Part shown: positions 6,806-47,370 of the stretch, one piece after another
Numbering within the stretch: position 1 is the first letter of the stretch
How the letters are laid out: each line of letters starts with the position of its first letter
From: a virus
Lineage: Duplodnaviria > Caudoviricetes
Length of the DNA: 64,000 bases
Strand: one strand, 5' to 3'
IMG/VR virus record: IMGVR_UViG_3300033076_001145
Span: 144,635 to 208,634 of that record
The notes under the pieces: generated by a model
The model's database searches: none
What the model saw: only the letters and a program-made list of their open reading frames with translations
What the model was told of the DNA's origin: nothing
Made by a program: the position numbers and the translations under genes

Positions 6806-7360
6806 TTAATTCAACCATTTTCTAACAGTATTGTCAGTAACTCCGAACTTTCGTGCGACTGAACTATAACCTTCGTTAGCCACCATTTCAAATATAACTG
6901 ATTTTTCCGGTCTGTCAACCTTTCTTCTTGATTTGTGAGCACATTCTTTACATTTATTCCCCCACTTACTTATCTCACATCCACAATCAGAGCAGTTATA
7001 TTTTTTTGGTTCAGCTAAAGTAATCCATTTATCACTCTTTTCCAAATCATATTTTTCAATTTTTTTACTAACATTTTCAATCATTAAGTCAGGAGAATGA
7101 ACTTCTCTGTGACAATTTGCACACAAAACCATACATTTTTCAAATTCAGACATAATCCACTCCATATTTGAATTAGATAGTGTTCTTGAATCTAATTGAC
7201 TTTCTTTTGTATCTTTATCAATGTGGTGGAATTCTAAAGCCGCTAAATTTTTATTATATCCACAAATTTCACATCCACCTCCTTTTAAATTAATTAAATG
7301 AGTTTTTCTCTTCAAAGACCTCATTACCTGATATTCATAAGTGTTCCCTTGTTTTCTCAT
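6806..7360 (-). CDS. HNH endonuclease with zinc ribbon and C-terminal HTH
   Basis: CEICG..EFHH..LCANCHREVH; stop abuts the tRNA. Confidence 0.85.
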   Translation of the reverse strand: MRKQGNTYEYQVMRSLKRKTHLINLKGGGCEICGYNKNLAALEFHHIDKDTKESQLDSRTLSNSNMEWIMSEFEKCMVLCANCHREVHSPDLMIENVSKKIEKYDLEKSDKWITLAEPKKYNCSDCGCEISKWGNKCKECAHKSRRKVDRPEKSVIFEMVANEGYSSVARKFGVTDNTVRKWLN

Positions 7361-18427: not shown

Positions 18428-18511
18428 ATTTAATATTTCAATTTAACATTCAGTCGTTCCTGAATTGTTTTACAAATGTAAGTAATAAATACTCTCGTGT
18501 CAAGAAAAATT

Positions 18512-35013: not shown

Positions 35014-35035
35014 AGTTTTATTTATTAAAGTTTAG

Positions 35036-35106
35036 TTGTCCCTGATGGATTCGAACCACCATTATCTGAATCAAAATCAGATGTCCTGCCCTTAGACGAA
35101 GGGACA
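35036..35106 (-). tRNA. trnQ: tRNA-Gln(TTG)
   Basis: TCTGA-TTTTGAT-TCAGA. Confidence 0.92.
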
Positions 35107-35167
35107 AAATGGAGTGTAGTGGGGCTGCAGTCCCCTGAGGCACCTACACAAGTTATTCCTCTTTTTG

Positions 35168-35239
35168 CGGTCTATGAGGGAATCGAACCCTCATCCTCCG
35201 ATAGACAGTCGGATATCGTATCCTTTGGACCAATAGACC
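35168..35239 (-). tRNA. trnD: tRNA-Asp(GTC)
   Basis: TCCGA-CTGTCTA-TCGGA, G73. Confidence 0.9.
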
Positions 35240-35246
35240 GTATTTG

Positions 35247-35319
35247 AGCAGTGAAATGGAATCGAACCATCGTTTCTGAATTGGTAATCCATCGTAATAA
35301 ACCTCTATACGACCACTGC
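35247..35319 (-). tRNA. trnG: tRNA-Gly with ACC anticodon
   Basis: G1-C72, C2-G71, U73; loop TT-ACC-AA. Confidence 0.75.
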
Positions 35320-35397
35320 AGTTTGGGTGGAATCAGAGGCCTTCTGTCCACCGAGACCTCGTAGTTGACTTTCGTCAGAGCTTACCGAGACACTAGG

Positions 35398-35470
35398 AGC
35401 GGGTTGGGGTAATCGAAACCCCATCTTCACTTTGGAAGAGTGACATAATGAGCCGTTATACGAAACCCGC
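35398..35470 (-). tRNA. trnG: tRNA-Gly(TCC)
   Basis: TCACT-CTTCCAA-AGTGA, U73. Confidence 0.9.
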
Positions 35471-35552
35471 TTATAAAAAAACCCACTTCGTCAGATTAAC
35501 GGACTGACTGCCATTTCGGAGGTGGGGTTTGTCCTGTTAATTCAGGACCTCG

Positions 35553-35625
35553 TGGAACGGGAGAGAATCGAACTCTCATAAAACGATTTTCAGTCGTTCA
35601 CCTTGACCACGTTGGTAACCGTTCC
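35553..35625 (-). tRNA. trnF: tRNA-Phe(GAA)
   Basis: AACGA-CTGAAAA-TCGTT. Confidence 0.9.
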
Positions 35626-35660
35626 ATATTTCGTTTGCAAATATACAAACTTTTTCGTTG

Positions 35661-35732
35661 TCCCGGTAAAAAGAATTGAACTTTTGACAACTTGGATATG
35701 AATCAAGTACTCTACCACTGAGTTATACCGGG
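35661..35732 (-). tRNA. tRNA with CAT anticodon (Met or Ile2)
   Basis: Loop TTCATAT; A-C mismatch closing the stem. Confidence 0.75.
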
Positions 35733-35739
35733 TTAAAAG

Positions 35740-35813
35740 TAGCCCCTGTGTGAATCGAACACACGACCTATTGTTTGTAAGACAATCGCCCTAAACCACT
35801 GAGCCAAGGGGCT
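35740..35813 (-). tRNA. trnV: tRNA-Val(TAC)
   Basis: ATTGT-CTTACAA-ACAAT. Confidence 0.9.
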
Positions 35814-35833
35814 ATTTTAGTGGAAAATAATCT

Positions 35834-35897
35834 CCACCCATTTTTTCCGTGAAGAGTCGTTTTCCACCCATTTTTCACAAGTCCCACCCATTTTTTT
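35834..35897. repeat. three copies of CCACCCATTTTT
   Basis: Direct repeats in the Ile-Val intergenic spacer. Confidence 0.7.
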
Positions 35898-35899
35898 CG

Positions 35900-35973
35900 T
35901 ACTTCCGATTGGAATTGAACCAATGACCTTGACTGTATAAGAGTCCCGCTCTATACCCCTGAGCTACGGAAGC
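35900..35973 (-). tRNA. trnI: tRNA-Ile(TAT)
   Basis: GACT-CTTATAC-AGTC, A73. Confidence 0.85.
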
Positions 35974-35983
35974 ATTTGTGGAA

Positions 35984-36205
35984 TTACTTCCACTGATTTT
36001 TTCTGTTGTATTTCCAAGTTCTATACTCTCGTACTTTAGCCCAAGGAATTTTCTTGTTGGGGTTTTTATAACCTCTCTTATGGTATGGATAGAAATTTAA
36101 TCCTTCATCCCAATAAAGTGGATACCATTCGTTTAGAGAAATTAGGTGGTAATCCCGACCACATTCTGATTGTTTGAGCTTTGCTCTGTTTCTGTTTTTT
36201 GACAT
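35984..36205 (-). CDS. basic hypothetical protein within tRNA cluster
   Basis: 73 aa ending RTWKYNRKNQWK. Confidence 0.6.
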   Translation of the reverse strand: MSKNRNRAKLKQSECGRDYHLISLNEWYPLYWDEGLNFYPYHKRGYKNPNKKIPWAKVREYRTWKYNRKNQWK

Positions 36206-36274
36206 AGTTATTAGGGTTTACCTAATAGCCATAATAGTGCCCTGGTCTCATAATTTTTGGTTTTTAAAGTTTAG

Positions 36275-36347
36275 TGGACACGGTGGGGCTCGAACCCAAT
36301 CTTCCGCATTGCAAGTGCAGCGCTTTAGCCATTTAAGCTACCGGCCC
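36275..36347 (-). tRNA. trnA: tRNA-Ala(TGC)
   Basis: G3-U70; CTGCA-CTTGCAA-TGCGG. Confidence 0.88.
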
Positions 36348-36358
36348 ATTTTAAATTG

Positions 36359-36430
36359 TCGAAAATGTACGAATCGAACGTCTCCTGAATGCCCCAAACA
36401 TCCCATGCATACCATTACACCTCATTCTCG
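36359..36430 (-). tRNA. trnP: tRNA-Pro(TGG)
   Basis: C1-G72; GGATG-TTTGGGG-CATTC. Confidence 0.8.
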
Positions 36431-36437
36431 AATTAAG

Positions 36438-36512
36438 TTCTCACGGCTGGACTCGAACCAGCGACCGTTTGTGTATCAGACAAAAACTCTAAACCACCTG
36501 AGCTACGTGAGA
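36438..36512 (-). tRNA. trnI: tRNA-Ile(GAT)
   Basis: TTTGT-CTGATAC-ACAAA. Confidence 0.9.
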
Positions 36513-36519
36513 ATGTTAG

Positions 36520-36590
36520 AGCCCCTACTCGGAATCGAACCAAGAACAATTGATTACAAATCAATCGTTATACCTTTTAACTATAGAGGC
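36520..36590 (-). tRNA. trnT: tRNA-Thr(TGT)
   Basis: ATTGA-TTTGTAA-TCAAT. Confidence 0.9.
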
Positions 36591-36596
36591 TTGTTG

Positions 36597-36681
36597 CACG
36601 CCAGGAAGGATTCGAACCCTCATAGAACATAATAGTTCACGGTTTTGGAGACCGTTGCCTAAACCATTCGGCCACTGACGT
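36597..36681 (-). tRNA. trnW: tRNA-Trp(CCA) with long variable arm
   Basis: ACGGT-CTCCAAA-ACCGT, G73; extra arm GAAC-TATTAT-GTTC. Confidence 0.85.
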
Positions 36682-37402
36682 GTATTATTTTTTCAATTAT
36701 TTTATCAATATTGTTTTTAACTTCGTAATCGCTAAATCTTAAAATCTTCCACCCCATTTGGGATAAAATTCTATCTCTTTCAATATCAATTTTTTTAACA
36801 TTTTTTAAATTATGTGTAGAACCATCAATCTCAATGTTAATTTTTAAATCAACGAATGCGAAATCTAATGAATATCTTAAAATTGGGTATTCCTGCGTCC
36901 ACCCATCAATACCATTCTTAATTAACGACTCTCTAAATAACCTTTCAGGATAACTTTCTTTTGATGAGTGATTTAATAAGTAAGGTATTTTACCTGGATT
37001 TTCATCTAAGTATTTTTTCCTAGATTTTGATATTTTCAATTTCTGTTCATCACTCATTTTCCTACCCTTTCCGATTTTAGATAATTTTTCTTTCCTGTCG
37101 TTTAATTTAGGATTTAAATAACAATTAACCTTATGACCTCCGAGAGACCTTCCATCATCATATTCAACACCACAAAAACTACAGATATGTTTTTTAATCA
37201 CTTTATTTTTAATTTCAAGTGATTTAGTTCTTGGTTTTCGTTTATGAACTGACAGATGACCTTTTAATTTTGAGATATTCTCAAATGGTCCCTTACCACA
37301 TTCGTGACAATAAAAATCACCAACATTATGAACACTCATATGTCCAGATAATTGATTTGGTTTTTCAAATTCTTTTTCGCAGATATTACATTTATACTCC
37401 AT
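36659..37402 (-). CDS. C2H2 zinc-finger / NUMOD3-like / Vsr-DUF559 endonuclease (putative homing endonuclease)
   Basis: CNIC..H..H repeats, KMSDEQKLKIS, ESYPE..YSLDFA..IEIDGSTH..RD..GWKILRF. Confidence 0.8.
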   Translation of the reverse strand: MEYKCNICEKEFEKPNQLSGHMSVHNVGDFYCHECGKGPFENISKLKGHLSVHKRKPRTKSLEIKNKVIKKHICSFCGVEYDDGRSLGGHKVNCYLNPKLNDRKEKLSKIGKGRKMSDEQKLKISKSRKKYLDENPGKIPYLLNHSSKESYPERLFRESLIKNGIDGWTQEYPILRYSLDFAFVDLKINIEIDGSTHNLKNVKKIDIERDRILSQMGWKILRFSDYEVKNNIDKIIEKIIHVSGRMV

Positions 37403-37453
37403 AATTATAAATATTTCGTAGGTCATTTTTTTAAACCACCTAACTAAAAAAAG

Positions 37454-37541
37454 TGACCCCGGTGGGACTCGAACCCACAACGGCTATACAGCTTCCCTAC
37501 TGATTAAAAGTCAGTTGCGCTACCAATTGCGCCACGAGGTC
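37454..37541 (-). tRNA. trnK: tRNA-Lys(TTT) with enlarged variable region
   Basis: ACTGA-CTTTTAA-TCAGT then ~20 nt including GCT-GTAT-AGC. Confidence 0.85.
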
Positions 37542-37552
37542 ATTAAATTTTG

Positions 37553-37624
37553 CGGTGATGGGGAATTTCGAAATCCCGACCCTCTGATTAACAGTCAGAT
37601 GCTCTGCCTCTGAGCTACATCACC
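37553..37624 (-). tRNA. trnN: tRNA-Asn(GTT)
   Basis: TCTGA-CTGTTAA-TCAGA, G73. Confidence 0.9.
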
Positions 37625-37662
37625 ATTTTTCCCAATATGTCAAAGAACCTTTTTGTAACACC

Positions 37663-37698
37663 AAAAAAAAACCCCGAACTTTTTTGTAGTTCAGGGTT
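37663..37698 (-). terminator. intrinsic terminator between leader ORF and tRNA cluster
   Basis: AACCCTGAACT/AGTTCGGGGTT hairpin plus T tract. Confidence 0.8.
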
Positions 37699-37723
37699 CC
37701 CTTTTTTATATTTGATGATACGC

Positions 37724-37837
37724 TTACATCTCATTAAGAACCCTTACTACGCTAAAATCTTGTCCCTTAATCGCAGACCATGTTTGGCCTACGGTTGTCG
37801 GTAGATTATTTACGCTATGTATTGAGTTCTGTTTCAT
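37724..37837 (-). CDS. putative 37-aa leader peptide
   Basis: MKQNSIHSVNNLPTTVGQTWSAIKGQDFSVVRVLNEM*, between promoter and terminator. Confidence 0.55.
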   Translation of the reverse strand: MKQNSIHSVNNLPTTVGQTWSAIKGQDFSVVRVLNEM

Positions 37838-37868
37838 TGTCTTATTTATTAAATATGTAATTGTTTGA

Positions 37869-37899
37869 CAAAAGTATAACTATTTTTCAGTTATGTCAA
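37869..37899 (-). promoter_or_regulatory. promoter of the leader/tRNA operon
   Basis: TTGAC ... TACTTTTG. Confidence 0.65.
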
Positions 37900-37906
37900 G
37901 TTTTTT

Positions 37907-38383
37907 TTAAATTTTTATTTCAAAATGTATGAAATTATAGTCATCTTTGAAGTATTCTATGTTGTATTCCATTCCTTCCTTCACTCTTTTTCTTATTGAA
38001 AGGAGTCCAATACCTGCTCCTCCCTTTTCACTAAACCCTTCTTGTCCGAGTTTATTGATAATCTTTTCTTTAATTTCTTCTTCACTTGAAGTGGTTACAC
38101 ATTGTAACCTTTTCTCGAGTTCCTCAGTTTTTTCTTTAAGTAATAAGTTACCTGTTTTGATGGTGTATGACTCTTCATTTTTAAGTAATTCAAAGTATGC
38201 AAATGTTTCACCATTTGGTGTTTTATCTGAGTGATGAATTACATTTTGTAGAGCTTCAACAATTAGGAAAGATATTTTTCTAATTAATGTTGGTTTTTCG
38301 TCTAATTTACTAACAAACTCAATCACCCCATCAAGATATTCTTGGGTGATGTTGCCTGAGTGTTGAAGTAAAGAGTTTTCCAT
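37907..38383 (-). CDS. SiaB-like / histidine kinase-like ATPase fold protein
   Basis: VEALQNVIHH..TGN..SEKGGAGIGL. Confidence 0.7.
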   Translation of the reverse strand: MENSLLQHSGNITQEYLDGVIEFVSKLDEKPTLIRKISFLIVEALQNVIHHSDKTPNGETFAYFELLKNEESYTIKTGNLLLKEKTEELEKRLQCVTTSSEEEIKEKIINKLGQEGFSEKGGAGIGLLSIRKRVKEGMEYNIEYFKDDYNFIHFEIKI

Positions 38384-46193: not shown

Positions 46194-47085
46194 GAAGCCT
46201 GAGATTACAGCTTTGATTGAGAACCTTTGGAAGGATTATTGTTTCCCTTCGTATCCACTTCCTTTTGAGAAGTATTTCTCAGTGACGGTCTTTTAAGTTT
46301 ACCACTCTTTGAGGTTTGAATTACTCTATCAGTACTCAACTCTTTCCGAGGTTGCCACCCCAGTTCGTCCTTGCGGGATTAAAGGTCTTTCGTAACAATA
46401 CACATTGACTTGGGGTCTTTGTGTGCAATGAACGGCTCATTACTATGTAGTCACCTTTCACTCAAACCTGATGGACACTTTTCCTTAATGTATTTTAATT
46501 AATTGGATAATTTAAATTCCATTTAGTTTTGTGTCGTAGATGTGTCAGAGTAGTGGTCCACCGTAAGCTCCGTTTCCTTTTGAGAAACGAAATACTAAAC
46601 TACTCCGTGAAGTGTCCCCACCTCCATATTCCAAGATTACTTCATAAAGAGACCTTGGTAGGTCTGACTTTAGGGGTAGTAGCGACACCACTCGTTCTCC
46701 ACCTTACCTTTCGGTTTTAAGTCCTCTATCATATTGGGACCCGCAATAGTGTGATTGGATAATCACATTTCTTACAGAGTTCCTATGGGTTATTCTTATT
46801 ACTCTTCCGAGTTCAACCTGACAATCTACTTTGCCAGGTCACCCTACCATTTTCCCTACGAAGTTATCCTCGGTACCGAAGGTTTGGTGATATCCCACTT
46901 GTGTACTTGAGTTCAATTTCCCTTACGGGATTTCAAACCGCAGTCTCCTCAACACGGGGGAGACCACTTTATCCTACTTTCGTAGTTTATTTAAGGACCA
47001 TACACGGCCCATTATCGTTTATCAGATTAAATGTCTCATAATCAACCCGAAGGTCTCATAATCAACTACTGAATGGATAATCTAT
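46194..47085 (-). ncRNA. large (~890 nt) ornate ncRNA candidate
   Basis: No credible ORF, many GNRA/UUCG-capped hairpins, tandem promoters and boxA-like motif upstream, terminator at 46160-46184. Confidence 0.65.
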
Positions 47086-47088
47086 TTT

Positions 47089-47370
47089 TTCAAAGAACGT
47101 TTCGGACATTTCCGAATTGTTTTACAAATTTACGACATTTATTTCTATTTGTCAAGTTATTTGTTAACTTTTTTTTGAGATTTGGAAACTTTAATCGTTT
47201 TACCACTCTGTGAACCTTAATCTCAAATCCTTTACAAACTTACAACATCTTTTCCAATTTGTCAAACTTTTTGTAAAGTTTTTTTTAGTTTTGACTACCG
47301 AGTATCTTTCATTTCCTATAAGTGTCAAATCTTTTACAAACTTAAAGCAAATATTCGGTAGTGTCAAATA
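47089..47370 (-). promoter_or_regulatory. three tandem promoters plus boxA-like motif
   Basis: TTGACA...TAA(A/G)TTTGTAA near 47125-47156, 47234-47266, 47337-47367; GTTCTTTGAA at 47089-47098. Confidence 0.7.

Follow-up and report, generated by a model that had tools for sequence, protein, structure and literature searches.

Phage tRNAs are currently viewed as an aid to codon usage and as a countermeasure against defences that cleave tRNAs, and how phages regulate the genes for them is, to our knowledge, largely unknown. The locus described here raises this question, as the main tRNA array of a phage is preceded, on the minus strand, by a promoter, a short open reading frame (ORF), a terminator and a boxA-like motif. 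A first-pass annotation of the DNA had listed these elements together with the first gene of the array, tRNA-Asn, and we found all of them again at the same places or within 3 nt of them. What, then, does a terminator do between a promoter and its tRNA genes? The DNA analysed, a stretch of 64,000 nucleotides referred to here as the window, comes from an IMG/VR virus record of 208 kb. The answer that we consider probable is that a ribosome-mediated, i.e. leader-peptide, transcription attenuator gates the array. This answer was obtained from sequence, without any experiment or RNA data; translation of the leader, the control of read-through and the dependence of the switch on translation are inferred and have not been shown. 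The attenuator interpretation, which had been put forward in the first-pass annotation, is supported by the analysis, in that every prediction of it that can be tested computationally came out as such an attenuator requires. The positions of all elements are collected in Table 1.

Table 1. Elements of the putative attenuator and of the tRNA array behind it, in the order of transcription (positions are those of the window).
Feature	Position	Strand	Remarks
Promoter of the Bacteroidota type, TTGACA-N17-TACTTTTG	37869–37899	-	kept in all relatives
A/U-rich 5' leader, A at -3 of the ATG, without Shine-Dalgarno sequence	37838–37863	-	alignment columns 1–37, unpaired in the consensus fold
Leader ORF, 37 codons (MKQNSIHSVNNLPTTVGQTWSAIKGQDFSVVRVLNEM), start ATG at 37837	37724–37837	-	open and free of indels in 34 distinct relatives
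Region 1, AGAACUC	37824–37830	-	pairs with GGGUUCU (37743–37737) as helix P1; invariant in 34 sequences
Helix P2	37807–37800 with 37765–37756	-	inside the ORF; one UA-to-CG exchange
Helix P3 (hairpin)	37793–37785 with 37780–37772	-	inside the ORF; CG/UG/UA, GU/AU and GU/GC exchanges
Region 2, AGGGUUCU, codons 32–34, putative 5' strand of the antiterminator	37737–37744	-	conserved
Small hairpin, GAUG/CAUC	37714–37730	-	stop codon (37726–37724) in the loop; paired in 33 of 34
Region 3, 5' arm of the terminator	37688–37701	-	GGAACCCU at 37700–37693 pairs with region 2
Region 4, 3' arm of the terminator (37680–37667) plus U-run to 37663	37663–37680	-	100% of cells paired in 34 sequences
boxA, GTTCTTTGACATATTGG	37632–37648	-	identical to the 16S-23S spacer boxA of Bacteroidota rRNA operons
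tRNA-Asn	37552–37624	-	first tRNA after boxA
tRNA array, putatively regulated	35035–37624	-	14 tRNAs and an endonuclease ORF; ARAGORN and Rfam

The phage is a large one from a lake, and its sequence points to a host among the Bacteroidota, because Shine-Dalgarno motifs are missing and the TAnnTTTG promoter element is present. Hereby, a Shine-Dalgarno-like motif stands before 3 of 51 phage genes, and an A is found at position -3 in 73%. Sites of the form TTGACA-N16-18-TAnnTTTG occur six times in the window compared to 0.2 expected, all of them on the minus strand (6889–6918, 18473–18503, 37869–37899 and 47125–47367), and RNA genes lie downstream of five of the six. The exception is a promoter-like site at 6918, which seems to lie within coding-looking sequence. 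The six TTGACA-N17-TAnnTTTG promoters form a distinct class, and at least three of them are followed by identical first transcribed bases, TAAAACAAT. For the leader we estimate that transcription starts near 37863. Immediately 5' of its promoter lies a gene (37907–38383, minus strand) for a 158-residue DUF6272 protein with a GHKL/HATPase-like fold (E = 3.5e-24).

A blastn search of deposited phages (INPHARED) with a 3-kb query returned no relative of the leader, its matches being confined to the tRNA-Asn, and no related loci were found via the upstream DUF6272 protein. Pattern scans of viral and metagenome contigs yielded 58 loci with 34 distinct leader sequences. As the anchors of the metagenome scan were confined to bases close to the promoter and bases behind the stop codon, the ORF was not part of the selection. 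One candidate (L036) was discarded as a chance match in coding DNA. A DUF6272 gene precedes the module in one further locus (L004), the upstream genes are different in the other relatives, and the module is followed first by a tRNA for Asn, Trp or Lys; given these differences on both sides, the module travels as a unit that heads tRNA arrays.

Throughout the 34 distinct sequences the leader ORF keeps its 37 codons without a single indel (34 of 34), while the flanks carry several indels. The first-pass annotation had named conservation of the ORF length in related phages as a check on its proposal, and the proposal passes it. Start, frame and stop of the ORF are intact in each of the 59 alternative alleles, although 8.2% of random single substitutions would destroy one of them (p ~0.006). 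In the ORF frame, pN/pS against the consensus amounts to 0.23–0.47 in all seven divergent members tested, compared to 0.84 or more in the other two frames. Moreover, 23 synonymous alleles are observed in the ORF versus 14.7 expected (z = 2.6), and the third position is variable in 21 of the 37 codons. From this indirect, comparative evidence we infer that the leader ORF is translated. The earlier count of 28 different codons and 18 amino acids was reproduced exactly; hereby, the number of codons falls in the top 3.5%, and that of amino acids in the top 7.4%, of 37-codon windows taken from the phage's own genes. With 28 distinct codons among 37, the leader ORF contains no run of one regulatory codon.

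To what extent does the RNA provide the alternative folds of an attenuator? Consensus folding of the leader alignment with RNAalifold revealed a conserved three-helix domain inside the ORF that is closed by helix P1, a pairing absent from the first-pass annotation and likely to act as an anti-antiterminator or pause helix. In the 34-sequence alignment, more than 98% of the cells are paired in P1, P2, P3 and the terminator. Regions 1 and 2 show no variation whatsoever in these sequences, third codon positions included, and region 2 ends 11 nt ahead of the stop codon. The terminator hairpin, which has 14 pairs on the alignment, 10 of them contiguous in its core, and a U9 run, reaches -18.7 kcal/mol when folded alone; seven of its pairs vary on one side only and none is broken in any of the 34 sequences. 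An A-run on its 5' side (37701–37711) faces the U-run on its 3' side (37663–37671), and with such flanks it could also stop transcription arriving from the other direction. The annotation had seen no promoter after the terminator, and indeed none fits into the 38 nt between the U-run and the tRNA. A second promoter based on a TTGACA inside the boxA was considered and rejected, as its downstream element would fall in the tRNA, where there is no match.

According to the annotation, AGGGTTCT in the last ORF codons (37744–37737) can pair with GGAACCCT (37700–37693). We confirm this pairing as a helix of 8 bp, including one G-U pair, and find it kept in the relatives, in most of them in a stronger form than in the window. 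In 29 of the 34 sequences the antiterminator comprises 11 bp, the end of the ORF carrying AGTTCAGGGTT, an exact copy of the 3' arm of the terminator. Five window-like sequences have lost four antiterminator pairs and possess a C-G pair at alignment columns 130–169 that is absent in the other 29, so that 8 contiguous bp remain. Folding of successively longer transcripts predicts that P1 is part of the minimum-energy fold in 34 of 34 sequences when the transcript reaches only region 2, that 33 of 34 prefer the antiterminator (median advantage 8.5 kcal/mol) once region 3, and not yet region 4, has been made, and that P1 together with the terminator is favoured in the full transcript (-53.1 versus -42.9 in the window). 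In terms of these computed energies, the order is the one expected of an attenuator. Which of P1 and the antiterminator prevails without a ribosome is a kinetic question that lies beyond folding energies. When a ribosome footprint is masked in equilibrium folding of the whole transcript, the terminator wins at nearly every position, a result that is uninformative on kinetic control. It counts against the attenuator reading that the antiterminator of the window itself has only 8 bp and is favoured by only 3.1 kcal/mol, that the diversity of the window family is low (92% mean column identity) and that only two pairs of this family have changed on both sides.

Based on these folds, the switch can be envisaged as follows. 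RNA polymerase would start at a strong promoter of the kind used for RNA genes and transcribe the 37-codon ORF. On its emergence, region 2 would pair first with region 1 to give helix P1, and as soon as region 3 emerges, the antiterminator between regions 2 and 3 would be the more stable fold. Its formation would block the terminator, and the polymerase would read on, pass the host-rRNA-type boxA, take up Nus factors and transcribe the array. A ribosome that stands at the last codons before region 3 is made would cover region 2; region 3 would then pair with region 4, transcription would stop at the U-run and the array would remain off. If the ribosome is delayed at any of the first ~25 codons, region 2 would stay free and read-through would be favoured. 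Shortage of any array tRNA would in this manner increase transcription of the array and plenty of it would lead to shut-down and, as the leader is written in the codons that the array tRNAs read, the supply of these tRNAs would be placed under feedback. The array tRNAs would probably be made mainly when the matching codons are read slowly. A role against tRNA-cleaving defences is possible and rests on nothing in the data. We know of no demonstration of close transcription-translation coupling in these hosts, which counts against the attenuator reading.

The boxA downstream of the terminator allows the host connection to be examined. The 17-mer is identical to the one in the 16S-23S spacer in all three Bacteroidota rRNA operons examined, where it is located, on each of the three contigs, between the spacer tRNAs and the 23S rRNA. 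Among bacteria it occurs almost only in Bacteroidota, including Pedobacter, Mucilaginibacter, Chitinophagaceae and Bacteroidales. This restriction, together with the location in the rRNA spacer, identifies the 17-mer as the host's rrn spacer boxA. Presumably it recruits NusB/S10 and renders the polymerase processive through the structured array; both the binding and the resistance to termination are inferred. The 208-kb record holds one other boxA only, GTTCTTTGAAAAAATAG (47082–47110, minus strand), which follows a small hairpin directly behind three tandem promoters, resembling an rRNA leader, and heads a long structured RNA without an ORF-terminator unit. In five relatives (L015, L016, L020, L022 and L026) an insert of ~90 nt, ending in a T-arm-like GGTTCGAATCC hairpin, lies between the U-run and the boxA, and in several phages (among them L107, L119, L125, L140, L144, L147, L154, L160, L171 and L175) one or two tRNA genes lie between terminator and boxA, so that the boxA need not come first behind the attenuator.

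The switch is supported most strongly by the recurrence of the same plan in unrelated leaders, because this evidence is independent of a single, slowly evolving family. A scan for a U-run followed by the boxA uncovered a second leader family (L062, L064, L068 and L070) without any sequence likeness to the leader of the window. In the ~300 nt upstream of the boxA, this family has a promoter of the Bacteroidota type and an ORF of 32 codons, MMATYLTYSLFSLPQQLCEELFYALKEGKYSG, which is rich in Tyr, Leu and Glu; near the end of the ORF lies GGAGGG, a copy of the 3' arm of the terminator, and the same boxA follows, with a tRNA-like gene after it in L070. The array behind this second family holds Cys, Thr, Gln, Pro, Leu, Glu, Tyr and Phe tRNAs. 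Seven other matches of the scan were rejected as leaders, being chance matches in coding DNA.

The boxA 17-mer in turn led to a larger collection, with more than 115 viral contigs among the matches listed. A terminator is present at most 220 nt upstream of the boxA in 93 of 162 viral loci, and these 93 fall into 25 sequence-unrelated clusters. In each of the 25 clusters, an ORF of at least 18 codons ends 21–36 nt before the 5' arm of the terminator, compared to 2.8 of 25 expected from dinucleotide shuffles (p ~2e-24). An upstream complement of this arm that is significant against shuffles exists in 15 of the 25 clusters (1.25 expected) and lies within the last codons or at the stop in 14 of those 15. 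Across clusters, the complement changes together with the terminator (AGTTCGGGT, GTTCGGG, GGAGATGG, AAGAGGG, GGAGGG). In the remaining 10 of 25 clusters no significant complement of the terminator arm was detected, which counts against the attenuator reading. Among bacterial loci, a hairpin upstream of the boxA was found in 2 of 111, only one of them with a short ORF; we judge both matches to be spurious, and one is probably part of a tRNA. A host origin of the whole module was dismissed on the basis of the same 111 bacterial 17-mer loci, which are without the ORF-terminator unit. As far as these loci show, the ORF-terminator module before the boxA is specific to phages.

If the leader meters the tRNAs behind it, its codons should correspond to the array. 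The array of the window runs in the order Asn, Lys, (endonuclease ORF), Trp, Thr, Ile, Ala, Ile(TAT), Val, Met, Phe, Gly, Gly, Asp, Gln. It is interrupted, after tRNA-Lys and before tRNA-Trp, by an ORF (36659–37399, minus strand; 246–273 residues) with zinc fingers of the C2H2 type and, at a Pfam E-value of 1e-15, a DUF559 / REase_MTES_1575 endonuclease domain. This ORF looks like a homing endonuclease inserted in the array; the gap is missing in relatives. The annotation had stated that the leader contains every amino acid served by 15 downstream tRNAs as well as the ATA codon. The tRNA count has to be lowered to 14 according to ARAGORN and Rfam; the remainder of the statement stands, as the leader peptide holds all 12 amino acids of the array, including ATA for tRNA-Ile(TAT). 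The 11 array amino acids without Met are all present in only 4.5% of the equal-length windows of phage proteins. Taken alone, the match in the window is weak evidence, and for this reason it was tested across 14 leader families with at least five kinds of tRNA behind them, Met being left out.

In these families the leaders contain the amino acids of their own array with a mean recall of 0.978, and 12 of the 14 families reach 1.00. Swapped leader-array pairings yield 0.835 ± 0.025 (a value as high as the observed one arose in 0 of 20,000 permutations), random peptides of the pooled leader composition 0.771, and equal-length windows of proteins from the same locus 0.742 ± 0.037 (0 of 50,000 reach the observed value). 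The same-locus protein windows thereby rule out that shared genome composition explains the match. With related families merged to 11 and the per-family p-values combined by Fisher's method, p is still ~1e-5. The correspondence extends to codons: for amino acids with several codon boxes, to which this test was restricted, 76% of the codons are readable by anticodons of the own array versus 65 ± 3.6% for swapped pairings (p = 0.0004). Furthermore, array-served residues make up 66% of the zone in which a stalled ribosome would free region 2 versus 48% of the zone in which it would mask region 2 (Fisher p = 1.3e-4). The codon-sampling idea of the annotation is thereby borne out at the family level, with leaders that carry the amino acids and, preferentially, the codons of their own array. 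Within the window family the picture is mixed: the ATA and Ala codons do not consistently track the second Ile tRNA or the Ala tRNA, a result that favours neither side and has to be listed among the points against the attenuator reading, and the leader barely changes while the arrays gain or lose members. In addition, 10 of the 37 leader residues (Ser, His, Leu, Pro, Arg and Glu) have no tRNA in the adjacent array, which counts against the attenuator reading.

These data bear on the alternative that survives best, namely that the attenuator is real and senses general translation capacity, i.e. ribosome availability, elongation rate or a stress or defence directed at the ribosome, and not particular tRNAs. 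The lack of codon runs would agree with it, as would the flat composition of the leaders, in which the rare amino acids C, H, W, Q and M are over-represented 1.4–2 fold, and the near-constancy of the window-family leader in front of different first tRNAs (Asn, Trp, Lys). However, leaders match their own arrays better than they match other arrays, and better than the phage's own proteins do, down to the level of codons, and the array-matching residues lie in the sensor zone. We therefore regard general sensing as unlikely, without being able to discard it.

The leader peptides themselves deserve a separate look. In many clusters with unrelated DNA they begin with MK(N/T/Q) and have a His near position 7 and, near positions 17–21, a Trp followed by Phe or Ser. 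Such motifs, common to several leader families, could reflect either conserved codon sampling or a function of the peptide, and a function of its own could count against the attenuator reading. Carried further, the ORF would be a separate small gene with a terminator of its own that encodes a 37-residue peptide, or else its transcript would be a small RNA; constitutive leak-through, helped by the boxA, would yield the tRNAs, and the complementarity would have no regulatory role. Besides the motifs, the pN/pS values below 1 fit a functional peptide, and the terminator is strong with its -18.7 kcal/mol. It is difficult to reconcile with a separate gene, however, that unrelated sequences, too, carry in their last codons a copy of the terminator arm which varies along with the terminator, that the distance from stop codon to terminator is held at 21–36 nt in 25 of 25 clusters and that the leader matches the array. 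No Pfam domain was found in the 37-residue peptide, and the composition of the leader peptides is unlike that of proteins, Asp and Glu being depleted to 0.3–0.4 of background. Taking both sides together, we consider a separate small gene improbable. Slightly less credible still is a translation-independent RNA switch, in which a ligand, a protein or a tRNA bound by the P1-P2-P3 domain would decide between terminator and antiterminator and the ORF would be incidental, since the conserved hairpins P2 and P3 with their pair-preserving changes and the RNA-level constraint on regions 1 and 2, which speak for it, are outweighed by the preservation of the ORF, the selection specific to one frame, the presence of an ORF in 25 of 25 unrelated leaders, the match with the array at the amino-acid level and the lack of any Rfam family or T-box match.

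Leader-peptide attenuation as such is a textbook mechanism, and the attenuator proposed here can be compared with the known examples. In the enterobacterial attenuators (ilvGMEDA with Leu, Val and Ile codons, thr with Thr and Ile codons, as well as trpL, hisL, pheL and leuL) promoter, ORF and terminator follow in the same order, the helices 1:2, 2:3 and 3:4 exclude each other ahead of an intrinsic terminator, region 2 is masked once a ribosome has arrived at the ORF end, and the codons serve as a readout of charged-tRNA supply. Among these known cases, the multivalent leaders of ilv and thr come closest. In contrast to all of these, the phage element would regulate tRNA genes and not biosynthetic enzymes, and its leader is without codon runs, the 28 codons sampling about a dozen or more tRNA species, each of them mostly one to five times. 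Its stop codon comes after region 2, not before, a boxA follows the terminator, and the host is one without Shine-Dalgarno sequence. No Rfam leader model matched; the Thr_leader model (RF00506) scored 23.5 bits over 37663–37737, well under its gathering threshold of 55 (E = 0.29).

T-box riboswitches likewise let the status of tRNA control termination through competition between antiterminator and terminator. Unlike the element proposed here, however, a T-box, characterised by the specifier loop of its Stem I and by a conserved T-box bulge, binds uncharged tRNA directly, without translation; its targets are genes for aminoacyl-tRNA synthetases and amino-acid genes. None of these traits is seen in the phage element: an Rfam search at E up to 1 gave no T-box match, and the antiterminator is a plain helix. 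With the rrn-type boxA/Nus antitermination of rRNA leaders and spacers and of the lambda nut sites, the phage shares a 17-mer identical to that of the host spacer. Here, however, the boxA is placed downstream of a regulated intrinsic terminator, heads a tRNA array and not rRNA, and, owing to this position, cannot act on that terminator itself. Drug-sensing attenuators of the erm, vmlR and lmo0919 type show that stalling of a ribosome on a short ORF can relieve a terminator without any codon run; whereas these answer to an antibiotic-bound ribosome and control resistance genes, the phage leader tracks the tRNAs downstream.

The mechanism is therefore known, and its application to phage tRNA genes is undescribed in the literature searched: full-text searches, with most subscription journals outside their coverage, returned no account of a leader-peptide attenuator before tRNA genes. 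Nor are we aware of any earlier case in which the speed of decoding governs tRNA transcription. If true, an attenuator in front of tRNA genes would constitute a direct feedback from decoding speed to tRNA transcription and would extend the principle of the trp operon from a single amino acid to a dozen or more simultaneously, the phages combining an attenuator of their own with the rRNA boxA of the host. The rule that the content of a leader predicts the content of its array is checkable in thousands of metagenomic phages. A compact natural sensor of tRNA supply would also become available for the Bacteroidota, a group with few genetic tools. Whether these leaders are widespread, so far undescribed multi-codon 'tRNA supply meters' of Bacteroidota phages is in our estimate an evenly balanced matter; each leader would sample the tRNA species of its own array, and the whole array would come on when any one of them is depleted, be it through a mismatch in codon usage or through a host defence that cleaves tRNAs, and go off again once supply is restored.
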